A DNA stretch of 64,000 bases from the sequence record OQ938542.1. One strand, given 5' to 3'. A program made the position numbers and the translations under genes. The DNA comes from Escherichia phage vB_EcoP_PE007. Each line of letters opens with the position of its first letter. The stretch's first letter is position 1. The notes below the pieces were generated by a model. It did no database searches, was not told where the DNA came from, and saw only the letters and a list, made by a program, of their open reading frames with translations. Shown piece by piece: positions 1 through 27,080 of this stretch.

Positions 1-1
1 T

Positions 2-559
2 ACCAAACTGCCACGTGTAGTCTCTGCTATTGAAGGTGAAGATATTAACTGGCACGTTGATGTAGCAGGTGGGAAAGCACCATTTACTTATAAATGGCAA
101 TTCAAAGCTGATACTGCTGGTGCAGCATTCGCTGATATTAGCTCCAGTACTAACCCATCTGCTGCTACTGCAACATTGACCCTTAATGATGTAACAGCTA
201 CTTCTGCTGGTACTTACAAAGTGATTGTTACTGATGCTAATGGAACCACGGTAGAGGATGGGTCACTATTAGCTGTAGGCTATTACGAAGCAAGCTCACT
301 GGTAGCTACTCCTGCTTCACTGGCTCTGTCTGTTGCTGCCGATGCTGTTGCTGGTAAGACTGTAACAATTGTTGCTATGCCCGTTGGTTCATCTGCTGGT
401 ACTTTGTCTATCAAGACTGCTCCAGATTCTGCTCGTGCTACGGCTACCATTGCTGGTAACGTACTGACAGTTAAACCAGTGGCTGCTGGTGATACTACTT
501 CTGTAGTAGTTACCAACGGTATAGTCGATGTAACCATCCCTGTTACTGTTGCAGAATAA
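2..559 (+). CDS. Ig-like domain protein, 5' partial (possible capsid decoration protein)
   Basis: Frame is open from window start to the stop at 557-559 (track start at 176 is TTG inside the frame); Thr/Val/Ala-rich beta-strand repeats such as TYKVIVTDANGTT and VVVTNGIVDVTIPVTV. Confidence 0.45.
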   Translation, partial: TKLPRVVSAIEGEDINWHVDVAGGKAPFTYKWQFKADTAGAAFADISSSTNPSAATATLTLNDVTATSAGTYKVIVTDANGTTVEDGSLLAVGYYEASSLVATPASLALSVAADAVAGKTVTIVAMPVGSSAGTLSIKTAPDSARATATIAGNVLTVKPVAAGDTTSVVVTNGIVDVTIPVTVAE

Positions 560-581
560 TAGTACTTCTTTTTGTGGTTAT

Positions 582-601
582 AGCCCTCCTTAGTGAGGGC
601 T
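582..601 (+). terminator. hairpin attenuator/terminator
   Basis: agccctc-cttagt-gagggct followed by ttcttgtat; near-identical copy at 27631-27649. Confidence 0.4.
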
Positions 602-626
602 TTCTTGTATCTATAGGAGAGTAAAA

Positions 627-935
627 ATGACACAGAAATTACGTGTATGGCACATTCCCCAAATGCCAATGAAGGCATTTCATGTAGAAACTGATAGTCT
701 TCAGGAAGCTGTTAAGATTAAGAATGCGTTAGCAGACTATGACCTATTCCAGTATGAGAACAATGTCAAAGGCGATTATGCTAATGCTAACGGTATTGAG
801 ATGTGGGATGAGTCCCTCACTGACCAAGACCTTATTGATAGGGAATTGGAGGACCGTTGGGTAGATTGGTATATTGAAACTGAAGACGATTTCTTTGATG
901 ACCCAGAAGAATATCTGAATTATCTAATCAAGTAA
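627..935 (+). CDS. small acidic hypothetical protein
   Basis: ATG at 627 preceded by aggaga RBS; strongly acidic C-terminus (ETEDDFFDDPEEY). Confidence 0.6.
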   Translation: MTQKLRVWHIPQMPMKAFHVETDSLQEAVKIKNALADYDLFQYENNVKGDYANANGIEMWDESLTDQDLIDRELEDRWVDWYIETEDDFFDDPEEYLNYLIK

Positions 936-987
936 GTATGATTGCTTTATTTGGGGTTATAAACCCTGAAATGAAACCCTCAAGTTT

Positions 988-1017
988 GACCTCCCTATTG
1001 AAGGGAGGTCTTTTTTT
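988..1017 (+). terminator. rho-independent terminator
   Basis: gacctccc-tattgaa-gggaggtc followed by T7. Confidence 0.75.
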
Positions 1018-1042
1018 GACTTAAACATCCTGGAGCCAGGAA

Positions 1043-1231
1043 ATGTACAAAGAGATTGCGTTTTTCTCATTCTTACTAGGTGGTTTGATAGGTGCAGGAT
1101 TTGTAGCTATTTCTAATACCTACTTTGGTTCTACTCCAAACTCTGTAACACAAACCCTCAAGCATGAATGTGAATTGAATATCCCTCGTAATCAAAACTG
1201 TGTAATGCAGTTCGTACCGGAGAAGAAATGA
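1043..1231 (+). CDS. small membrane protein
   Basis: ATG with ggagccagg RBS; hydrophobic N-terminal segment FFSFLLGGLIGAGFVAI. Confidence 0.5.
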   Translation: MYKEIAFFSFLLGGLIGAGFVAISNTYFGSTPNSVTQTLKHECELNIPRNQNCVMQFVPEKK

Positions 1232-1488
1232 ATATTCATAATCTACATTTGGTTGAAAAACTGTATGAAGAATACAACGACAACCGACAGCAATTAGCTA
1301 GTTTGAAGAAAGCTCCACATATGGTGAAAGTATCCTTTTACGATAAGGATTTAGGACCGCAAGCTCGTACAAGAATACTACCTGAGCTACTGTCATTTTA
1401 TCAAAATAAGGTAGATGACTTAGAGAAACGCCTGAAGCATTTAGGTGTAGATTTATCAACGCTACCGGATGAAGGAGAAGATGAGTGA
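1228..1488 (+). CDS. hypothetical protein
   Basis: ATG overlapping upstream stop (ATGA), operon-style coupling. Confidence 0.5.
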   Translation: MNIHNLHLVEKLYEEYNDNRQQLASLKKAPHMVKVSFYDKDLGPQARTRILPELLSFYQNKVDDLEKRLKHLGVDLSTLPDEGEDE

Positions 1489-1694
1489 AAGTAACAAATC
1501 GTTCTGAGAACAATGAGGTAACTTTCGGTGATGTGGAGCCTGCTAATGGTTTTATTTATAACCAGACAGTGTGTTTAAAGATTCACTTACCTGATGGTAA
1601 ACCTGCTGCTGTTGCTGTAGAAACTGGTAAATCATTCTGTCTATCTGCAAGTACATTCGTAACACCAATAAACCTGGAAGGATATTACCTTTGA
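1485..1694 (+). CDS. hypothetical protein (GTG start)
   Basis: GTG at 1485 with gaaggag RBS 5 nt upstream; no internal Met. Confidence 0.4.
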   Translation: MKVTNRSENNEVTFGDVEPANGFIYNQTVCLKIHLPDGKPAAVAVETGKSFCLSASTFVTPINLEGYYL

Positions 1695-1876
1695 AATTAA
1701 CACAGTCCCAAGCAATCTTCCTTCGTATGGTTCAAGGTGGCTCTGCCACCAGCAACCGTAATAACAAAACCGCACAGTCTCTTAAAAAGCTGGGCTTAGT
1801 TCAGTTCAATACTGGTCTTGGGTGGTCATTAACCCCTATCGGTGTACTTCAACTCAACGAAATGAAAGGTAACTAA
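1691..1876 (+). CDS. hypothetical protein (TTG start)
   Basis: TTG at 1691 with ggaagga RBS; alternative ATG at 1727. Confidence 0.35.
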   Translation: MKLTQSQAIFLRMVQGGSATSNRNNKTAQSLKKLGLVQFNTGLGWSLTPIGVLQLNEMKGN

Positions 1877-2206
1877 ATGAAAACTTTACTTAAAGGTATT
1901 GCAGTAGCTGCACTGATAGCTTTGGCCCCAAGTGCACAGGCAATTGAACCAGAACCAATTCTGGAAGGTGCTCAGGCTTACCTGGATGACACCCGTGATG
2001 TGTTCGGGCAAGGGTTCTTCATGGGCAGCATGGTTGCTTACATTGAGAACACAAATAACTGTGTTCCTGATGGTATTAAGTATTCAAGCATTCTGCCTAA
2101 GATTGCCAAAGTAGTTATTTATGACTCTGCGATCCTTAAGATGAAGAATACATCTCAAATTATTGCGTACTCAGTGCACAAGGCATATCCCTGCACCAAA
2201 TCTTAA
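1877..2206 (+). CDS. secreted/periplasmic small protein
   Basis: N-terminal signal peptide MKTLLKGIAVAALIALAPSAQA with AQA-I cleavage-type site; two Cys. Confidence 0.55.
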   Translation: MKTLLKGIAVAALIALAPSAQAIEPEPILEGAQAYLDDTRDVFGQGFFMGSMVAYIENTNNCVPDGIKYSSILPKIAKVVIYDSAILKMKNTSQIIAYSVHKAYPCTKS

Positions 2207-2240
2207 TTAGTAATTCCATTAGCTTTAGGAGAGTAAGTAA

Positions 2241-3293
2241 ATGGCAAGCATTGACTCCTTGACCGTATGTAATTCACGTCAAGCCCGTAACTTTATTATC
2301 CGTGCCTTGAAAGCAGGTAACGTACCGTTCCTGACTTCATCCCCGGGTATGGGTAAATCTGCAATCATTCGTTCTATTGCAGAAGAATTTGGTATGAAGC
2401 TGATAGATCATCGTCTGTCTACTTCTGCCCCAGAAGACCTGTCTGGCTTACCATTCCGTAATGGTGACCGTGCAGAGTTTATTCCATTCGCTGACTTATT
2501 CCCCATTGAAGGGGATGAAGTACCAGAAGGGTATAATGGCTGGCTCCTGTTCCTTGATGAGTTCAACTCAGCTAAGAAAGAGGTAGTGGCTGCTGCATAC
2601 AAACTAATTCTCGACCGTATGACTGGTCAGAAAAAACTTCATCCTAATGTGATGATTGTATGCGCTGGTAACAAAGCTACTGACCGTGCCATTGTTAACC
2701 CATTAGGTACTGCAATGCAGTCCCGTGTGGTTCACTTTGAAATGGAACTTAACTTCGACATCTTTGTTGAAGACGTAATGATTCCTCAGCAATGGGATGA
2801 ACGTCTGGTTGCATTCTTACATGCTAATCCAGGCTATCTGCATGACTTCGACCCAGCTCATAAGAACAAAACGTTCTGTTGTCCTCGTACTTGGGACTTT
2901 GTTAATAAAGACCTCAAGAACCTGCCAGAAGGTGCTCTTCCTGATGAAGATTCTATCTACTATGCAGGTCACGTTACTGCTGGTAAGGCTACAGAGTTTG
3001 TTCAGTTTACTCAGGTATATAATCGTATCATTACGATTGAGAAGGTAGTCAAAGACCCACTGGGCTGTGCACTACCGGAAGATAACAACCTGTGTTGGGC
3101 TACCGTTAACCATCTGGCTAACAAGACTACTGAAGAGAACTTTGTTGATGTTCTTCAGTACATTGAACGCTTTAAAACGTTCACCCATAAGATTCTGTAC
3201 TTCCGCACAGTAGGCAAGGCTTTACCAGAAATTCAGGCTACACCTGAATGGCGTAAGGCTGCTGCTAACGTCTCTCGTTACATTCACGGATAA
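2241..3293 (+). CDS. MoxR-like AAA+ ATPase
   Basis: Walker A SSPGMGKSAI, Walker B LFLDEFNS; aggagag RBS. Confidence 0.75.
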   Translation: MASIDSLTVCNSRQARNFIIRALKAGNVPFLTSSPGMGKSAIIRSIAEEFGMKLIDHRLSTSAPEDLSGLPFRNGDRAEFIPFADLFPIEGDEVPEGYNGWLLFLDEFNSAKKEVVAAAYKLILDRMTGQKKLHPNVMIVCAGNKATDRAIVNPLGTAMQSRVVHFEMELNFDIFVEDVMIPQQWDERLVAFLHANPGYLHDFDPAHKNKTFCCPRTWDFVNKDLKNLPEGALPDEDSIYYAGHVTAGKATEFVQFTQVYNRIITIEKVVKDPLGCALPEDNNLCWATVNHLANKTTEENFVDVLQYIERFKTFTHKILYFRTVGKALPEIQATPEWRKAAANVSRYIHG

Positions 3294-3300
3294 TCACAAC

Positions 3301-4476
3301 ATGAACCAATTTCCTCAGCACACACTTAGTGATGAACAACTCATGCGTGAGTATGACCGTATTCAGGCTCAAGCCTTCCTGGGTAAGTCTGCTGCGTTCT
3401 TTGGTTCATTGCTGTGTAGTCTTAAATTCTCATGGAAACGCGAGGATTGCCCCACTGCATGTACTGATGGGATAGAACTCCATTTCAACCCAGACTTCTT
3501 TATCTGGATGTGTCCAGATGCAAGAGAAACAGTATTAATGCACGAGTTATGGCATGTGGCATATCTACATGACATTCGTCGTGGAAGCCGTGACCCGGAA
3601 GTCTGGAACCAGGCTTGTGACCACTTCATTAACCTTCAGTTAGAAGAGGATGGTTACAAGTTCACTGGTATTGACAAAGGCATTTGCAAAGACCCTCAAT
3701 ATAAGGATTGGGTCGAAGAAGACATCTACGATGACCTGATGAAGAACCCTCAGAAAAGGCAGAAGCCGTCAGGGGGTGCTGGAGCAGGTCTTGCTGGCGA
3801 CATAAAATCCCCCACTTCGGGGCAGTCCCAGGGTGCTGTTGTCAACAACGTAGTTCGTGCAATGCAGAGCCAGAAAATGGCTGGTGGACAGATGCCTGGT
3901 AAGGGTGCTGGACGTATGGAAGAGGTTATTACCCAATTCCTTAAACCAGTGGTTCCTTGGCAGGAAGTTCTGATGAACTTCTTTACCGACATTGATGACA
4001 CTCACTATACGTGGGCCAGACCAAACCGTCGTTATACTGACACCTATCTACCTTCACTGGAAGATGATGAAGGACGCCTACGACACTTAGCTTATTTTGA
4101 GGATGTATCCGGTTCTATTAGTAGTGCTGACTCTCTGCGTTTTAACTCAGAGGTTGCCTACGTTAAGAGCCAGTTCAATCCTAAGAAGATGTCCCTAATT
4201 ACCTTCGACGATATTATCCAGGAAGAAATAGACATCACTGAAGAAGATACTTTCGAAGAAATTAAAATTACTGGTCGTGGTGGTACAAGCCTCGTGCCTG
4301 TACGAGATTGGATTATTAAGAATAAGCCAACCGCTGCAATCATATTCTCCGATATGTATGTTCGTCCAATGGAAGAATTGCCATTTGATATCCCTATCAT
4401 CTGGTGTGTTCTGAATAATCCCAATGCTACCGTACCTTTTGGGGAGGTAGTTCATATCCCTAAAGGAATGAAATAA
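3301..4476 (+). CDS. VWA-like domain protein with HExxH metallopeptidase-like N-domain (DUF2201-type)
   Basis: HELWH motif; C-terminal half resembles a VWA-like fold; immediately follows the MoxR ATPase as in bacterial MoxR-VWA pairs. Confidence 0.55.
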   Translation: MNQFPQHTLSDEQLMREYDRIQAQAFLGKSAAFFGSLLCSLKFSWKREDCPTACTDGIELHFNPDFFIWMCPDARETVLMHELWHVAYLHDIRRGSRDPEVWNQACDHFINLQLEEDGYKFTGIDKGICKDPQYKDWVEEDIYDDLMKNPQKRQKPSGGAGAGLAGDIKSPTSGQSQGAVVNNVVRAMQSQKMAGGQMPGKGAGRMEEVITQFLKPVVPWQEVLMNFFTDIDDTHYTWARPNRRYTDTYLPSLEDDEGRLRHLAYFEDVSGSISSADSLRFNSEVAYVKSQFNPKKMSLITFDDIIQEEIDITEEDTFEEIKITGRGGTSLVPVRDWIIKNKPTAAIIFSDMYVRPMEELPFDIPIIWCVLNNPNATVPFGEVVHIPKGMK

Positions 4477-4982
4477 TGGTTGTTAATGGTAATTCTCTAT
4501 ATCGTTCATCTCAGTTGCTGGATGTCCCAGACCGTAAGATATCCGAACATGGTGTAAGCTATGGATTGGGTGAAGCTGGTTACGATATTCGTATCAAACA
4601 AGATATTACCTTCTATCGCTTATTTGGGTTGATTCCAATGGTGAAAGTCGTTGATGGAAACAAAGTATCACGCCATCTCGGTAAATTCACATTGGCTTCA
4701 GCAATTGAGAAGTTCAACATGTCCCCATCCTGTGTAGCTATCGTTCACGATAAGTCTACGTGGGCAAGACGTGCATTATCAGTGTTCAATACCGTAATAG
4801 AACCAGGATGGAAAGGGTATCTCACCCTTGAACTGGTCTATCATGGTCGTAAGAAATTGCATATCCCAGCTGGTGCTGGGATAGCTCAAGTATTATTTCA
4901 TCTGGTTCAAGAACCTGCTAATTACAATGGCAAGTATATGAACCAGGAAAACAAACCAGTAGCTGCAAGAAGCAGTAAATAA
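4476..4982 (+). CDS. dCTP deaminase / dUTPase-family protein
   Basis: GYDIRI motif and C-terminal VIEPGWKGYLTLELV resembling the dCTP deaminase signature. Confidence 0.6.
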   Translation: MVVNGNSLYRSSQLLDVPDRKISEHGVSYGLGEAGYDIRIKQDITFYRLFGLIPMVKVVDGNKVSRHLGKFTLASAIEKFNMSPSCVAIVHDKSTWARRALSVFNTVIEPGWKGYLTLELVYHGRKKLHIPAGAGIAQVLFHLVQEPANYNGKYMNQENKPVAARSSK

Positions 4983-4991
4983 GGAAACAAC

Positions 4992-5201
4992 ATGTCAATA
5001 TTTCAAGTAACTCATGCAACCTCAGATGTACGTGTAACCATTAATGCTGCAAATGTAGTAGGAGTGGAACAAATTCCACTGTCTGATTGTGCACGTATCA
5101 CATTCGTAAATGATAGTACTATGGACACCAAAGAAACCTATCGTTCGGTACGTAATTACCTGAAGAAAGCTCTTGCTCCTACAAGCAAAGACGCTGAGTA
5201 A
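4992..5201 (+). CDS. hypothetical protein
   Basis: ATG with aaggaaa RBS. Confidence 0.45.
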   Translation: MSIFQVTHATSDVRVTINAANVVGVEQIPLSDCARITFVNDSTMDTKETYRSVRNYLKKALAPTSKDAE

Positions 5202-5274
5202 GTAACTGCCTAAATAGCCCAGCATAGTTGGGCTATTTGTGAAGAAACTAACTCAACCCCACATAGGAACCATC

Positions 5275-5517
5275 ATGGAATCTTTAGCAGCAATCCTTGT
5301 TATGTTGTTTGTATTAGCTGTATACCTTATCCCTACTATCATTGCTTTCTCACGAGGCCATGCCTCTAAGTGGGGTATTGGTGTGCTTAATATCGTATTA
5401 GGCTGGTCTTTAGTCTTCTGGGTAGTAGCACTGATTTGGTCGCTGTCCAACAAAGGACAGAACCAAGTTACAAATGTAACTGTTGTCCAAACCAATGGTG
5501 GCAGTAAAGCAGAGTAA
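5275..5517 (+). CDS. superinfection immunity (Imm-family) membrane protein
   Basis: YLIPTIIAFSRGHASKWGIGVLNIVLGWSLVFWVVALIWSL matches the Imm_superinfect pattern; ATG 5275 with aggaa RBS (track start 5239 is GTG). Confidence 0.55.
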   Translation: MESLAAILVMLFVLAVYLIPTIIAFSRGHASKWGIGVLNIVLGWSLVFWVVALIWSLSNKGQNQVTNVTVVQTNGGSKAE

Positions 5518-5591
5518 CTAATCGTAATAGTCTCATGAGGCTATTACTGGAAGTTACTTCCAGCTCATTGCTTATCCATCTCCTAATCCAA

Positions 5592-5616
5592 GCCCACCTA
5601 ACCCGTGGGCTTTTTT
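5592..5616 (+). terminator. rho-independent terminator
   Basis: gcccac-ctaaccc-gtgggc followed by T6. Confidence 0.7.
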
Positions 5617-5632
5617 AATTACAGGTACTCTT

Positions 5633-6013
5633 ATGTCAAACAGACGAAATGGTAAGTCTATCTTTCAAGGGATGGACTTCGGTAAGCTGGAACAAACTGC
5701 AATGCTTGCTTTGGGTAAAACTGTCCATGACCAAGTGGAGAGTAAAATTGAATTAGATCTTTATGCAACAATGCAGACTCTTATTCAGAAAAAATGGATT
5801 ACTAGCAGACCTTTTCCTTCATACATTCCCCCAGAACCACATCTGAAATCTAAGGTAGACCGTATCATAGATAAGTTCTGGCTTAGCCCGTGTTATGACG
5901 AAATGCATCTTTACTTGGCTCAAATACAAAAGAATCCTTATACCAAAGATGTATTTAAGGGCAAGAGCACTACCCATCACTACCCCTGGTATAGAAGAGG
6001 TAGTAAATACTAA
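5633..6013 (+). CDS. hypothetical protein
   Basis: ATG ORF following terminator 5592-5616. Confidence 0.45.
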   Translation: MSNRRNGKSIFQGMDFGKLEQTAMLALGKTVHDQVESKIELDLYATMQTLIQKKWITSRPFPSYIPPEPHLKSKVDRIIDKFWLSPCYDEMHLYLAQIQKNPYTKDVFKGKSTTHHYPWYRRGSKY

Positions 6014-6456
6014 TGCGTATCCCATTCCTAAGAAAAAGAGAACGAAATCCTGTTCTTTATAATAAAGGCATAGAGGATGAGTATGAACTCAACCGTAAAG
6101 CCCGTTCCTACATAACAAAATTATTCATGGGGACTAAAAACCCTGATAGATTATTAGACTTTGTTTTTGAACAAGTCTTTATCATATACAGCTTAGCTAT
6201 GTCTGCTGGTTCACAAGAAGTAAGTGATAAGGCAAGAAATGCTCTCTGTATGCTCCGTAAAGAGTATGAAGCTCTCATGTATGGAGACTTGTACTCATTT
6301 AAGGAAGAAACCGCTGTAGCGTGTTCTGTGGCTCTTACTGAAGGTGTAGCAGTATTACAGGAACTACCTCGTAGTGAGTTTAAACTGGTATATGTTCAGG
6401 TTAAGAGAATCACAGAAACGAGAAGTGGTATCACTAACTATCTAAGGTCATTCTAA
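6013..6456 (+). CDS. hypothetical protein
   Basis: ATG overlapping upstream stop. Confidence 0.45.
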   Translation: MRIPFLRKRERNPVLYNKGIEDEYELNRKARSYITKLFMGTKNPDRLLDFVFEQVFIIYSLAMSAGSQEVSDKARNALCMLRKEYEALMYGDLYSFKEETAVACSVALTEGVAVLQELPRSEFKLVYVQVKRITETRSGITNYLRSF

Positions 6457-7400
6457 TGATTAAGGCATCAGTAATTGCAGATTCCGTTCATCCAGAAACA
6501 GGAACCCGTATCACAACCTTTGAATTGGTTTATCCCCGATTCATTCACAGTGAGTTTATGACTCACCGTGTATTCAACCGCAATGCTTCAAGTAGCCGTG
6601 CTATTCCTACCTCTAAGTTAATCGAACAGGTTCGCAATGAACCAGTGATGCCAAGTCACTGGGGCAAGAACCAGAAAGGTATGCAAGCAGATGAAGAACT
6701 CACTCCTATGGAGATTGAGGATGCTAAGTTTATCTGGGATAACGCTGCATCTGCTGCTGCTGTGTATGCTGAACAGCTACGTCGTGGGCAAGTACATAAG
6801 CAGATTGTTAACCGCATTCTGGAACCATTCACTCATATCCGTGTAGTAGTAACTTCAACTAGCTGGGCTAATTTCTATGGACTGCGTGACCACAAAGATG
6901 CACAGCCAGAGATTCGTGAACTGGCTCAAGCAATGCGTATGGCACATGAAGAAAGTACACCAAGGGCATTACCATATGGACAATGGCATCTGCCATATGT
7001 TGCTCATATTGATCGTGTTGGGGCTTACAATTTCTGCAAACGCAATCGAATTACACGCGATGAACCAAGTGATGCAGAAGTGCATGGACTACTCCTCAAA
7101 GTAAGTGCTGCACGCTGTGCCCGTGCCTCATATAACAACTTTGAGGGACGCCCTTCTACTATCGAAGAAGATCTTGGCTTATTCGCTAAGTTAGTAGAAA
7201 ACCAACCTATTCATGCTTCTCCAACGGAACATCAGGCTACACCTATGAACCTTGGTGAGAAGTATGTGAATAACATGAACCCAGTTACCTGGGAACAAGG
7301 TGTTACATCCATGGATAAAGAAGGGAATCTGTACTCAGGTAACCTGCTCCACTTTATCCAATTCCGTAAATTAATTCCTGGTGAGACTATTACTGAATGA
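6456..7400 (+). CDS. ThyX-like FAD-dependent thymidylate synthase
   Basis: THRVFNRNASSSRAI resembles the ThyX RHRxxSxNxxSxR signature, with Thr in place of the first Arg. Confidence 0.5.
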   Translation: MIKASVIADSVHPETGTRITTFELVYPRFIHSEFMTHRVFNRNASSSRAIPTSKLIEQVRNEPVMPSHWGKNQKGMQADEELTPMEIEDAKFIWDNAASAAAVYAEQLRRGQVHKQIVNRILEPFTHIRVVVTSTSWANFYGLRDHKDAQPEIRELAQAMRMAHEESTPRALPYGQWHLPYVAHIDRVGAYNFCKRNRITRDEPSDAEVHGLLLKVSAARCARASYNNFEGRPSTIEEDLGLFAKLVENQPIHASPTEHQATPMNLGEKYVNNMNPVTWEQGVTSMDKEGNLYSGNLLHFIQFRKLIPGETITE

Positions 7401-7636
7401 AAAAACTAGCTCTATACGCAATGCTAATTAGTACCCTACTAACACTGACCTACGCATACAAAGTTGCCTTTGTCGTAGAAACAGATATGCAGTTCATTCG
7501 AGCTAGTATTCTGTTCTTTGTAAGCGAGATTGGTTTATGGTGTGTTTACTACTTTGCTCGTGACTACGAAGCAATTCGTGAGCAAGAAGAAGTGAAAAAA
7601 CAAATGATACGATTTGTAGAACAAAATCGTAAGTAA
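7397..7636 (+). CDS. small membrane protein
   Basis: Two hydrophobic segments; followed by terminator 7643-7667. Confidence 0.5.
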   Translation: MKKLALYAMLISTLLTLTYAYKVAFVVETDMQFIRASILFFVSEIGLWCVYYFARDYEAIREQEEVKKQMIRFVEQNRK

Positions 7637-7642
7637 ACCTAA

Positions 7643-7667
7643 GACCTCCTCCGGGAGGTCTTTTTTT
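7643..7667 (+). terminator. rho-independent terminator
   Basis: gacctcc-tccg-ggaggtc followed by T7. Confidence 0.75.
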
Positions 7668-7696
7668 GGTTTCAATTAACTCTTTTAGGAGGGCAT

Positions 7697-7909
7697 ATGC
7701 CTGCTAAATACCGTATCAAAGACACACCCGTAATGTGTGAGGGTGAGAAGGGCGACATTGTATATGCCTGTATCCAGGATGATTTCAATGCTGCTCAGAT
7801 GCTAACCCAAATGACAAATACACTGCATGTGTCAGTAACACTGGACCCTACCGGTGACTATCCATGCTTCCCTATTCCTGCCCATAACCTGGAGCAAATT
7901 CATGATTAA
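7697..7909 (+). CDS. hypothetical protein
   Basis: ATG with aggaggg RBS. Confidence 0.5.
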   Translation: MPAKYRIKDTPVMCEGEKGDIVYACIQDDFNAAQMLTQMTNTLHVSVTLDPTGDYPCFPIPAHNLEQIHD

Positions 7910-8216
7910 CCCTGAAGTAATTCATAGTAAAACCGGTAAGGCTGTCCCACTCAGTGAGATTGCAGTAACTGGTGATATTGCTGCTTGTCCAGCAAACATT
8001 GCCTCTCTATGTATGTGCATTGCTGCACTGGCAGAGGAACGTAAGTTATGGCTGGAGCCAAGCAAGGAAATGGTACTAGCTGGTATGGCTGAACTGAATG
8101 CACTTCTGAAAGAAATGTATGACGAGAATGGTCAATTAGTTGAACCTACTGATGACCAAATTTCAGACGCTGTAGTATTTGTCCTTCAAGCAATGGCAGG
8201 TAAACGCAATGGTTAA
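7902..8216 (+). CDS. hypothetical protein
   Basis: ATG at 7902 with ggag RBS, ATGA overlap with upstream stop; track start 7854 is further upstream in frame. Confidence 0.45.
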   Translation: MINPEVIHSKTGKAVPLSEIAVTGDIAACPANIASLCMCIAALAEERKLWLEPSKEMVLAGMAELNALLKEMYDENGQLVEPTDDQISDAVVFVLQAMAGKRNG

Positions 8217-8400
8217 TGTAAATATCGCCTCAGAGAAAACGTATAGCATTCAGATTAATGGCTTAACTGAGTATCAAGTCTTATTCCTAATGAATGCTTT
8301 TCAAAATAGTCCAGTGGGTCACCATCCTAATGATGAACCACGAGAAGAAGCTGAACTTCGTAAAGCTATTTTTGATAAGTGTAAACAAGTTCTAATGTAA
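8209..8400 (+). CDS. hypothetical protein
   Basis: ATG at 8209 in frame with the TTG track start at 8179. Confidence 0.35.
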   Translation: MVNVNIASEKTYSIQINGLTEYQVLFLMNAFQNSPVGHHPNDEPREEAELRKAIFDKCKQVLM

Positions 8401-8427
8401 GCAACATTTAATCTGGAGAGTAAATAA

Positions 8428-10995
8428 ATGTTAGTTGCAGATACCAACGAAATAGCTACCTCAGCGACACTGGGTAGCAAAGAAACAATTGCCTTTGGCA
8501 TCTCTGATGACCCGGCATTCTTTCATGTATTAAGTACTTCCCTGTATAACAATCCTACTCTGGCAGTAGTCCGTGAGACTATCTGTAACAGTTGGGATGC
8601 TCATATTGAAGCAGGTAAGACTGATACCCCTATTCGTATCACTATTGATACAGACAACTTTATTACCTTCCGAGACTACGGTAACGGCATTCCAGATGAA
8701 CTCATTGGTTCCATTTATGGTGTCTATGGTGCATCTACTAAGAAGGCCAACAGTAGCGTTACTGGTGGCTTTGGCCTGGGATGTAAATCTCCATTCGCTT
8801 ATACAGATAGCTTCCAGGTTACTTCATGGAACCAGGGAAAGATGTCGGTATATAACGTAGCTAAGGCTGCGATTGAGAATGATGGTAAGCCCGGTATTGT
8901 TCCTATTGTTACTGGTATTCCTACTGAGGAATCTGGCCTGGAAGTTAAATTCCAGTTAGGCAAACATGACGTAAATACCTTCGTGCATTACATCACATCA
9001 ATCGTATTTAACGGTGAGATTAAAGCTGAGCTTAGTATCCCTAAACTAGTTAAAACAGAAGCAGGCAATAGTATTCAACAGGGTGATTACACTTTATTGA
9101 ATACGCTGGGTATGTCATTTGAACCTGGTTCATATGATATGTCTGATAGATGGTATCAAGGCTATATGGGTAGCAGTAACATATACGTTCGCTACGGTAA
9201 TGTAATGTACCCAATTGTATCCAGCCCAGCTAGTGAAGAAGCTGTAGACCTTATCCTCAACTTCATGAATATTATTGGTGCTTCTAATCTAGTAGTTCAG
9301 GCTGCACCAGACACTTTAGCTATTGCTCCTAGTCGTGAAACGCTGTCTAACCAGAAGTTAACCGACGATGGTATTACTACTCTATGTGTAGATTTAGTAG
9401 ACCGTATGGAGAAAGAGATTAAGGCTAAGATTCCTGAAGCTATTAAGCAAGTTGAAGAATATGCCTCTAAATCCTCTACTCGCTTTTGGGAATATCCATC
9501 TTTCCTACTTGCTGTTACAGACAGAACCGTCCAACGTTATATGTCCTCTAGCTTATGGGCTAAGCAACGTAAGCATCACATCAAACACTGGCGTAATCTA
9601 TCCAATAAGGCTTTGTTAGCTCGCCCTGAGTATGCAGGTCTTAAGAAACTGTATGGCAAGGCTATGTGTGCTCTTAAGGATACTCGTGAAGAAAGTACAT
9701 ACTCTCCGTTCCAGGAATTAGTATATCGCCATCTACACTTACCACAGCTTGCTGCTTTGAAAACCTCTGGTATTAAGTGGTCTGGTTACATAATGAACCA
9801 AGGTAATCGTGTTGACCTGGTGAAGGGTAGACTTACTGACTACTTTAAGATGTATCATAACTCCCATCAGGGTATTGGCATATTTACTACCAAGAACGTT
9901 GTAGTTACTCGCCGTTTATCTGATTGTGCAGACTCTTTTTCATACTTCCCTGAGTACAATCGAGGTGATCTGGAGCGTACAGCTTTTGTTCACGTCGTTG
10001 GTCCTAAGAAGGGTGCAGCAGAAGAAGCTGTAACTAAGTTCACTGCTATGGGTTATCGGGTAATTGACCTTACTCAATATAATGAGTGGGACAAACCAAC
10101 TAACTTCCGCAGAGAACAAGCTAAGATAGCTGCCGAGAAACGGGCTAAGACAATAGCTGCCAATAAAACCAAAGCAACTAGTAAAACCAATGCTCTGATT
10201 TCATTGAATGCAGTTCTTGGTGCTACCCAGGTGCGGAATAAAAATGGAGATTGGGAACCCAAGCCGTATATTCAGAAAGAATTTGCTGACCCAAGTCGCC
10301 ATGAAAAGTACGGTTTCGTTGAAGTAGAACAGCCTAAGTACTACGTACTAGCCAATCAGGTTGGTTCAGGTAACCCAGTAACTGCCAGTATTGGAACCAT
10401 GTGGAAATGGTATGAGTTATCCGATGAGATGAAAGCAGAGACTGTTGTCTGTCGTAATCAAATTGAAGCTAACAAGGCCAAACGACGTGGTGCTATCCAC
10501 ATTGATGATGTTCGCTTTAGTGAACTGATGTCTGTTATTACCAGTAAAGGATTCAAGAAATATGTTACTGAACATCGTATAGGTATTCTGGAATACGTAG
10601 GACTGGATGACAGAGAGTATTGGGAAATCCTAGACATACTGGGTCTAACCTTCAAACCATTACAGAATCTGATTTTTAAACCAGAATATGAATGGGCATA
10701 TGACTTTCTACGGAATCGACCACACGACAACAAAGAAAAACTTGTTGAAATGGGTTGTATTAAGTCAGTGGATGACTTAGAGCCATATGCAATAATGACT
10801 AATCCGCGTAATCATAAGTACTTTAAAATACTTAATGATTACAAAGAATTATTCAGTTATAGCTGGAATAAAAATGACATCCTACAGACGCTGGACTTAG
10901 GTAGTTTGGTCAAACACCTTAAGAAGAATCCAGAGGATATTCCTGGGTTTAAGTCCCTCTACCGTAATCGTCTAAATAAACTGAAAGGTAACTAA
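8428..10995 (+). CDS. rIIA: rIIA-like protein (GHKL ATPase domain)
   Basis: N-terminal GHKL boxes: RETICNSWDAH, DYGNGIP, GGFGLGCKSPFAYTDS; paired with a downstream large partner as in rIIA/rIIB. Confidence 0.6.
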   Translation: MLVADTNEIATSATLGSKETIAFGISDDPAFFHVLSTSLYNNPTLAVVRETICNSWDAHIEAGKTDTPIRITIDTDNFITFRDYGNGIPDELIGSIYGVYGASTKKANSSVTGGFGLGCKSPFAYTDSFQVTSWNQGKMSVYNVAKAAIENDGKPGIVPIVTGIPTEESGLEVKFQLGKHDVNTFVHYITSIVFNGEIKAELSIPKLVKTEAGNSIQQGDYTLLNTLGMSFEPGSYDMSDRWYQGYMGSSNIYVRYGNVMYPIVSSPASEEAVDLILNFMNIIGASNLVVQAAPDTLAIAPSRETLSNQKLTDDGITTLCVDLVDRMEKEIKAKIPEAIKQVEEYASKSSTRFWEYPSFLLAVTDRTVQRYMSSSLWAKQRKHHIKHWRNLSNKALLARPEYAGLKKLYGKAMCALKDTREESTYSPFQELVYRHLHLPQLAALKTSGIKWSGYIMNQGNRVDLVKGRLTDYFKMYHNSHQGIGIFTTKNVVVTRRLSDCADSFSYFPEYNRGDLERTAFVHVVGPKKGAAEEAVTKFTAMGYRVIDLTQYNEWDKPTNFRREQAKIAAEKRAKTIAANKTKATSKTNALISLNAVLGATQVRNKNGDWEPKPYIQKEFADPSRHEKYGFVEVEQPKYYVLANQVGSGNPVTASIGTMWKWYELSDEMKAETVVCRNQIEANKAKRRGAIHIDDVRFSELMSVITSKGFKKYVTEHRIGILEYVGLDDREYWEILDILGLTFKPLQNLIFKPEYEWAYDFLRNRPHDNKEKLVEMGCIKSVDDLEPYAIMTNPRNHKYFKILNDYKELFSYSWNKNDILQTLDLGSLVKHLKKNPEDIPGFKSLYRNRLNKLKGN

Positions 10996-26779: not shown

Positions 26780-26853
26780 GCCCACTTAGCTTAGACGGGG
26801 AAAGCAACCGACTAATAATCGGAAGGTCACTGGTTCAAATCCAGTAGTGGGTA
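26780..26853 (+). tRNA. tRNA (hand-folded anticodon AAU; identity uncertain)
   Basis: Acceptor gcccact/agtgggt (7 bp, one GU), D-arm gctt/aagc, anticodon arm accga-ctaataa-tcgga, 5-nt variable loop, T-arm actgg-TTCAAAT-ccagt, discriminator A; 74 nt. Confidence 0.65.
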
Positions 26854-27080
26854 CTTATTAATAGAGAACATAGTCCTGATTGCATTGCACTCTAAAGACA
26901 ATGCCGGTGAGACAGTCCGGCACTCTAATTATTGAAAACATACCTAACGGTGTGAGTATGAGCAGACTATAATGCTCAATTACAGTTAACTATTATCGGA
27001 CTATCAATCCTGTTTGCTGGTACAAGCACCGGTGGTAATAGTTAACTGGCCTAGCCTCGTTAGCTGCGTTAAAGCTACTA

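Follow-up and report, generated by a model that had tools for sequence, protein, structure and literature searches.

A MoxR-like AAA+ ATPase paired with a putative metallopeptidase-VWA protein in the middle-gene region of an N4-like Escherichia phage

We analysed a 64,000 nucleotide (nt) stretch of DNA from Escherichia phage vB_EcoP_PE007 (OQ938542.1), hereafter the window, in which open-reading frames (ORFs) were listed over positions 1-9000. Two adjacent ORFs, both found on the plus strand where a preliminary description of the window had placed them, encode an AAA+ ATPase of the MoxR-like/AAA_5 clade and a protein that joins an N-terminal putative zinc metallopeptidase to a C-terminal VWA domain (Table 1). 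The ATPase ORF starts with ATG, has an AGGAG box 9 nt 5' of it and is separated from the second ORF by 7 nt. These are not chance ORFs, as the ATPase matches PHROG 1297 ('ATPase') at E 1.9e-133, its partner matches phrog_1314 at E 3.2e-143 and two Pfam families at 2e-56 and 2e-34, and the 2.2 kb region shares 93-96% nucleotide identity with ~55 sequenced Gamaleyavirus genomes, including HK2, ZQ2, St11Ph5, pSb-1, ECBP1 and IME11. On this sequence evidence the window is a Gamaleyavirus genome, a G7C/St11Ph5-like member of the N4-like family Schitoviridae, and the two genes are orthologs of phage N4 gp24 and gp25 by sequence comparison; the St11Ph5 orthologs carry the notes 'gp24' and 'gp25', and we use these names throughout.

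Domains and motifs of gp24 and gp25

Both ATPase motifs quoted in the preliminary description, SSPGMGKS and LFLDEFNS, translate exactly from the window. Conservation was counted over about 150 homologs per protein (149 for gp24, 141 of which aligned at Walker A, and 158 for gp25). Beyond the Walker motifs gp24 has an alpha/beta core with a helical lid, and N144, R162 and R216 are each invariant in 149/149 homologs; their place in the secondary structure of the AlphaFold2 (AF2) model makes them candidates for sensor 1, arginine finger and sensor 2, respectively, completing the AAA+ features. The 45-residue insert between beta2 and beta3 retains R58, P64, D66, G69 and P71 in at least 147 of the 149 homologs, and its motif is also found in cyanophage, jumbo-phage and cellular homologs of gp24; it was modelled at low confidence (predicted local distance difference test, pLDDT, 57-78) with no clear helix 2 in the model. 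An additional helical C-terminal region of ~130 residues is conserved across the family.

Placing gp24 within the AAA+ proteins required distant comparisons. It passes the Pfam AAA model (27.1 bits, cut-off 21.2), scores 17.5 bits against AAA_5 (PF07728), below the gathering cut-off of 22, and has no match to AAA_3 (PF07726); an NCBIfam scan returned nothing for gp24 or gp25. Its sole sequence relative in the PDB is the midasin AAA ring, a weak match at E 3.6e-4 (0.005 with a profile), and the best matches of its predicted structure are dynein, midasin, CbbQ and NorQ. Other members of the family exceed the AAA_5 cut-off, namely those of cyanophage S-TIM61 (24.9 bits) and of a Poseidoniales-type contig (L012, 27.9 bits), and hhalign joins the N4-like ATPases to the S-TIM61 'MoxR-like ATPase' at E 1e-38, to the ATPase of Asteriusvirus PBECO4 at E 3e-30 and to that of L012 at E 7e-27. 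We conclude that gp24 is an AAA+ ATPase of the dynein/midasin/MoxR (AAA_5) clade which is too divergent for curated thresholds. The term 'MoxR-type' used in the preliminary description therefore holds at the level of the clade, through the structure matches and the homologs that pass AAA_5, and fails at the level of the curated models for gp24 itself; profile searches were significant for DUF2201_N and DUF2201 in the partner and sub-threshold for AAA_5 in the ATPase.

[quoted passage not shown] The model of gp25 (pLDDT 78) has two confident domains, with values of ~90 for residues 10-150 and 42-68 for residues 150-260; in it a zincin-like core folds over approximately residues 1-150 and is followed by a Gly-rich, low-confidence linker and more helices. 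H81, E82 and H85 of the HExxH motif occur in 158/158 homologs, and a third zinc ligand could be D107 (158/158) or H90 (155/158). The zincin assignment of this domain comes from the Pfam family and the HExxH motif. A search of the PDB by sequence gave no real match for gp25, and structure search recovered the Rossmann-like VWA fold, in which all five MIDAS residues are kept in every one of the 158 homologs, from phages and cells alike. The catalytic sites of gp24 and gp25 thus look intact in sequence, and both predicted enzymes appear active. Between the two domains of gp25, the segment W238-ARPNRRY-x-D-x-YLPS252 is nearly invariant yet is modelled at pLDDT 42-52; W238, P241, R243, R244, Y249 and P251 are invariant in N4-likes and R243 is kept in 155 of the 158 homologs. 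This segment may be where the ATPase engages its partner.

Many RefSeq records (NC_070873, NC_070874, NC_013692 and others) and Pharokka-style annotations name gp25 orthologs 'HNH endonuclease', because phrog_1314 bears that name. Were it right, gp25 would be an HNH endonuclease, gp24 an unrelated ATPase and their adjacency a coincidence, and the repetition of the label across so many records is what speaks for it. We rejected this identity, as Pfam scans of gp25, including scans of its two halves at E up to 10, found no HNH family; DUF2201_N and DUF2201 account for its full length, it has a VWA fold, and the pairing with an ATPase recurs at 38 of 38 loci. We give the endonuclease reading virtually no credence, and the name looks like a propagating misannotation.

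Table 1. Positions of the features discussed. Positions refer to the window unless an L number, our label for a locus elsewhere, is given.
Feature	Position	Strand	Basis or remark
gp24-type AAA+ ATPase gene, MoxR-like/AAA_5 clade	2241..3293	+	350 aa, 39.5 kDa
Walker A SSPGMGKS (K39)	2337..2360	+	translation; G38/K39/S40 invariant; K39 in 141/141 aligned homologs
Insert between beta2 and beta3, residues 56-100, motif DHRLSTSxPxDxxGxP	2406..2540	+	candidate helix-2 insert/pore loop
Walker B LFLDEFNS (D106, E107)	2547..2570	+	translation; both residues in 149/149 homologs
Stretch with candidate sensor 1, arginine finger and sensor 2	2670..2888	+	conservation and AF2 position
N144, candidate sensor 1	2670-2672	+	
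R162, candidate arginine finger	2724-2726	+	
R216, candidate sensor 2	2886-2888	+	
gp25-type gene, N-terminal putative zinc metallopeptidase and C-terminal VWA	3301..4476	+	391 aa, 44.7 kDa; Pfam and ORF
DUF2201_N region (PF13203), residues 17-253	3349..4059	+	Pfam 'putative metallopeptidase domain', E 2e-56
HELWH, zincin HExxH motif (H81, E82, H85)	3541..3555	+	translation; within predicted helix 72-87
H90, candidate third zinc ligand	3568-3570	+	
D107, candidate third zinc ligand	3619-3621	+	
Conserved, predicted-disordered segment WARPNRRYTDTYLPS, residues 238-252	4012..4056	+	directly 5' of VWA domain
VWA domain, DUF2201 (PF09967), residues 263-386	4087..4458	+	Pfam 'VWA-like', E 2e-34
MIDAS: D268-x-S270-G-S272 (4102-4116), T329 (4285-4287), D351 (4351-4353)	4102..4353	+	complete motif
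Probable transcription unit	988..5612	+	between terminator-like hairpins 988-1010 and 5590-5612; consensus matches only
Thymidylate synthase gene of the window (ThyX)	6456-7400		
Thymidylate synthase genes at other loci	L002 6961-7890; L004 6633-7304; L039 8505-9434; L008 11329-12279		
Cellular loci (Lentisphaerae, other bacteria, Poseidoniales)	L044 3825-9817; L046 3320-8434; L047 2039-7083; L042 4095-8245; L048 3931-9497; L012 48-4133		

Pairing of the two genes in phages and cells

Genes like gp25 were found by tblastn in 717 phage records, which span Schitoviridae of many host genera, Asteriusvirus/Eneladusvirus jumbo phages, Vequintavirinae, a T4-like cyanophage, Wroclawvirus and others, and, clustered at 50% identity, the family as a whole has 21,573 representatives at E <=1e-3 and 14,694 at E <=1e-10. 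We searched the six-frame ORFs of 39 loci with the ATPase profile; the loci represent nine clades, and viral metagenome and genome contigs are amongst them. Each of the 38 loci with enough flanking sequence encodes a gp24-type ATPase no more than ~5 kb from its peptidase-VWA gene. Judged by sequence, the pairing is obligatory. The ATPase mostly sits directly upstream, with inserted genes intervening at some loci; in the rV5-like Vequintavirinae it lies ~4 kb off on the opposite strand, and the gene which does stand upstream of gp25 in those phages was considered as the ATPase and rejected, as it is not one. All-against-all clustering of the ORFs within ~6 kb showed that the gp24 and gp25 families alone are common to all nine clades, other cross-clade clusters being antisense shadow ORFs or confined to three jumbo-phage clades. 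There was no conserved third gene beside the pair in this clustering, and the module is therefore a self-contained pair.

Several loci carry interrupted versions of the module. In Shigella phage pSb-1 (NC_023589; L050 501-2421) a ~0.9 kb insertion, which encodes the HNH endonuclease gp63 and may be a mobile intron or homing element, breaks the gp24 gene into gp62 (68 aa) and gp65 (224 aa), and gp25 of the same phage is annotated as two pieces too. The fragment PHROGs 21479, 16335 and 30358 and the truncated proteins P0021, P0025 and P0051 probably reflect such insertion events. Inserted genes part the pair in a Roseococcus metagenome-assembled genome (L007, 297-kb contig), in L013, and in Callisto and Pra-JY27. 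An N4-like block also occurs mid-contig in the isolate genome of Mesorhizobium yinganensis CN2-181 (contig2, 727 kb; L008 4785-12279), where a gp24-type ATPase, a gp25-type protein and a dCTP deaminase are followed further on by ThyX in the N4 order. This could be an integrated or carrier-state N4-like element, or an assembly chimera; the N4-like family is regarded as strictly lytic, and an integrated element would be unusual.

The module is not restricted to phages. With an archaeal-type homolog as seed, a search returned many proteins of Poseidoniales and bacteria, encoded on contigs as long as 356 kb, and a scan of viral contigs with the archaeal-type protein gave no match. In each of five cellular contexts which we inspected the ATPase is directly upstream of the peptidase-VWA gene and is recognised by the gp24 profile at E 1e-37 to 4e-42. 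Three bacterial contexts have a UvrD-like helicase upstream of the pair, one of which, run against PADLOC, matched GajB-type models at E 6e-72, and the remaining contexts have in its place a protein of 550-625 aa with no Pfam match. WYL/WCX regulators flank two of the cellular loci, and an IetA-like ATPase, a NERD-UvrD protein and septin-like GTPases are encoded nearby. Neither core protein of the cellular homologs matched PADLOC 2.0. These operons suggest an uncatalogued, helicase-linked conflict or repair system which uses the gp24/gp25-type module.

This cellular setting brings in a first explanation of the phage pair, namely that it is a host-directed or counter-defence protease whose MIDAS captures a host protein, such as a defence, nucleoid or DNA-repair factor, which would then be unfolded and cleaved during takeover. 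The GajB-like UvrD helicases, the WYL/WCX regulators and the other defence-like neighbours of the cellular homologs all favour it, as do the invariant catalytic residues, the description of MoxR-vWA systems with peptidase effectors as counter-invader (PMC7159879, PMC12839542) and middle-class expression of the phage genes beside rIIA/rIIB and genes that carry superinfection exclusion or immunity annotations. Set against this, the pair is kept throughout the N4-likes, whose hosts include Alpha-, Beta- and Gammaproteobacteria, and cyanophages have it too. An anti-defence gene tends to be accessory and restricted to particular hosts, and conservation across N4-likes of such different hosts argues against a host-specific target. 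Nor did PADLOC 2.0 give a significant match, with weak scores for gp24 against DolB (E 0.0064) and IetA (E 0.066) and no match for gp25, and the data point to no host target. We regard this explanation as rather unlikely. A related reading, which we rate slightly lower again, holds that gp24/gp25 is not an assembly chaperone at all but a self-contained, ATP-driven, MIDAS-targeted protease acting on a specific host or DNA-associated protein, with the cellular relatives, as three-gene operons of the helicase or 550-625-aa protein and the pair, forming an uncatalogued anti-phage or DNA-conflict system; if so, phages and their hosts would deploy the same machine on opposite sides.

Gene neighbourhood and expression class

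In St11Ph5, gp24 and gp25 lie downstream of the phage RNA polymerase II (RNAPII) subunit genes gp15/gp16 and of the decoration protein gene gp17, and upstream of gp26 (dCTP deaminase), gp30 (ThyX), gp33/34 (rIIA/B) and gp37 (helicase). Gene order in the window is the same, and the ORF of the giant virion RNA polymerase is on the opposite strand. Transcripts of N4 gp24 and gp25 are reported to belong to the middle class (PMC4193335, citing Kazmierczak and Rothman-Denes). The preliminary description had put the pair in the early region, and the position downstream of the RNAPII genes together with this middle transcription makes that label incorrect; its interpretation was right in substance and wrong on timing.

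The probable transcription unit contains five small ORFs, the ATPase and peptidase-VWA genes, the dCTP deaminase gene (4476-4982) and two further small ORFs. The stop codon of gp25 overlaps the ATG of the dCTP deaminase gene in a TAATG at 4474-4478, an arrangement suggesting that the peptidase-VWA gene and this nucleotide-metabolism enzyme are coupled in translation. Sigma-70-like promoter matches are strongly depleted in positions 1-9000, with 6 found and 19.7 ± 4.6 expected from shuffles, in a scan which does not detect N4 middle promoters; the depletion is consistent with transcription by phage RNA polymerases and not by the host holoenzyme. Elsewhere in the window a single tRNA-Ile gene (anticodon AAT, 26780-26854) lies between the plus-strand replication block and the minus-strand late block.

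A thymidylate synthase gene, ThyX or ThyA, is found 2-4 kb downstream of the pair in N4-likes, in Asteriusvirus/Eneladusvirus and in cyanophage S-TIM61. We considered it as a conserved third partner and rejected it, as it occurs in 3/9 clades and forms no shared neighbour cluster; because the proximity is confined to these clades, it may reflect a shared 'metabolism' neighbourhood.

Such neighbours raise a second explanation, in which the pair would serve a phage complex of DNA or nucleotide metabolism, as its chaperone or by inserting a cofactor, on the model of NorQD, CoxDE, CobST and BchID, with the HExxH domain holding a metal or trimming a precursor. The apparent coupling to dCTP deaminase and the downstream thymidylate synthases fit it, as do the links of the cellular versions to helicases, and characterised MoxR-VWA pairs are mostly metal inserters or enzyme activators (PMC13036017, PMC7159879). 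However, the thymidylate synthase link is not to a conserved neighbour family, no specific client enzyme is conserved beside the pair, and the metal-insertion partners NorD, CbbO and CobT are without an HExxH peptidase domain. By analogy with these systems such a role is conceivable, and we consider it improbable.

Proposed function and comparison with known systems

The reading which we prefer, with a probability of roughly 0.45, is that gp24 and gp25 form one two-protein machine, the client of which we guess to be a phage complex that matures between the middle and late phases, in virion morphogenesis or another assembly process. We rank the host-directed protease behind it and the metabolism chaperone last of the three. 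Under the preferred reading, the MoxR-like AAA+ ATPase gp24 would act presumably as a hexameric ring and gp25 as its adaptor and effector, the C-terminal VWA domain docking on the ring. The metal of the MIDAS would hold an acidic residue of the client protein, and the N-terminal HExxH zincin domain would cleave the client or a neighbouring chain. On the analogy of NorQ-NorD, CbbQ-CbbO and midasin, gp24 would use ATP hydrolysis to exert a pull on gp25, perhaps at the linker or at the conserved disordered WARPNRRY segment, with the effect that the client would be remodelled or the peptidase activated. We infer the contact between the two proteins, the hexamer, the proteolysis and the choice of substrate. 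NorQ-NorD is a guide to the mechanism: there the AAA+ hexamer is plugged by the VWA domain, which extends a 'finger' into the pore, client binding falls to the MIDAS, and ATP hydrolysis reshapes the NorD linker (PMC9976466, PMC13036017). The whole would amount to a split, adaptor-borne ATP-dependent protease.

A role in virion assembly was proposed by Iyer et al. 2021 for the MoxR and peptidase-vWA pair of jumbo phages (PMC7824862), with reference to Acidianus two-tailed virus (ATV) and the MoxR-vWA pair that acts in its tail assembly. Gene positions in several phages agree with this proposal. In PBECO4, phAPEC6 and Serratia BF the pair closes a co-oriented block of structural genes, in cyanophage S-TIM61 it lies between Hsp20 and a virion structural protein, and in N4-likes the capsid decoration gene gp17 is ~1.5 kb upstream; in roseophages a 'second structural module' adjoins gp24/gp25 (PMC4193335). 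Mass spectrometry of purified phAPEC6 virions moreover picked up the ATPase gp265c (MK817115; L041 7065-8390, annotated 'MoxR ATPase'), which was covered to 19% by 6 peptides (PMC7247149).

Several observations weigh against virion morphogenesis and against parts of the mechanism. The virion table of phAPEC6 also lists the thymidylate synthase gp259c and gp262c, so that the ATPase may be a contaminant, and the adjacent 'N4 gp25-like' gp264c is missing from that table (PMC7247149). The pair stands in a middle-class nucleotide-metabolism and replication block, amongst dCTP deaminase, ThyX, rIIA/B, helicase and polymerase, and outside the late structural block. The module is common to podoviruses, myoviruses and jumbo phages, and no structural gene travels with it. 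The UvrD-like helicases and WYL regulators beside its cellular homologs indicate DNA-linked or conflict functions rather than virion assembly. For the mechanism, no VWA 'finger' of the kind which enters the pore in NorD was recognised in gp25, and the zincin fold is unconfirmed, as structure searches with gp25 gave VWA matches only, which filled the lists. In the DUF2201, Schitoviridae and N4-like literature we found no functional result on N4-like gp24/gp25; in the gene-essentiality literature, the CRISPRi-ART paper holds no data on N4 gp24/gp25 and a phage transposon-sequencing (TnSeq) preprint covers phiKZ only.

Conserved throughout the Schitoviridae, the pair recurs in jumbo, rV5-like and cyanophages, and the cellular and metagenomic lineages that have it number in the thousands; knowing its substrate would explain why such different phages retain it. 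Should the AAA+ motor indeed drive a MIDAS-targeted zinc peptidase, viruses would have a split ATP-dependent protease of a new type. In practical terms the analysis confirms the annotation of both genes, corrects their expression class to middle and warns against the unsupported 'HNH endonuclease' label.

Much of this was already known: gp24/gp25 is an established gene pair, N4 gp24 (AAA) and gp25 (vWFA) having been tabulated amongst the conserved N4-like genes by 2009 (PMC2784036), and Iyer et al. 2021 had described the MoxR and metallopeptidase-vWA architecture for jumbo phages. The closest counterparts are N4 gp24/gp25 and their Schitoviridae orthologs, which keep the same order of gp24, gp25 and gp26 (dCTP deaminase) with gp30 (ThyX) further on; the window proteins share 97-99% identity with their counterparts in St11Ph5 and other Gamaleyavirus phages, and nothing substantive differs. 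The pair of the group 2.2 jumbo phages (PMC7824862) has the same 'chaperone-cochaperone' architecture of MoxR and metallopeptidase-vWA, and its partner in PBECO4 shares 27% identity and the same invariant motifs with gp25. It differs in location, as the jumbo-phage pair ends a structural block whereas the N4-like pair is in the middle-gene nucleotide-metabolism block, and the virion-assembly role is a prediction for both.

More distant are NorQ-NorD and CbbQ-CbbO, of the CGN subfamily of MoxR (AAA_5 with a VWA partner), which gp24/gp25 resembles in logic. However, gp24 has no significant sequence similarity to CbbQ or NorQ, which its ~130-residue helical C-terminal region further sets it apart from, whilst gp25 is much smaller (391 aa) and has an HExxH peptidase domain in place of the N-terminal domains of NorD and CbbO, whose clients (cNOR and Rubisco) are irrelevant to a phage. 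ATV p618 (MoxR-type ATPase) and p892 (VWA) form a virus-encoded AAA+ and VWA-MIDAS pair to which a chaperone role in virion (tail) development is ascribed (PMC7824862, PMC7911831); this is an archaeal virus, and the VWA partner is without a peptidase domain (PMC7824862). Finally, multicellular bacteria have vWA-MoxR ternary conflict systems (Kaur et al. 2020, PMC7159879), which combine a MoxR ATPase with vWA fused to peptidase effectors, amongst which metallopeptidases are rare (PMC7159879). Those systems require a third component, VMAP or iSTAND (PMC7159879, PMC12839542), whereas the phage pair has no conserved third gene, and the cellular relatives of gp24/gp25 have a UvrD-like helicase or the unannotated 550-625-aa protein instead of VMAP or iSTAND.

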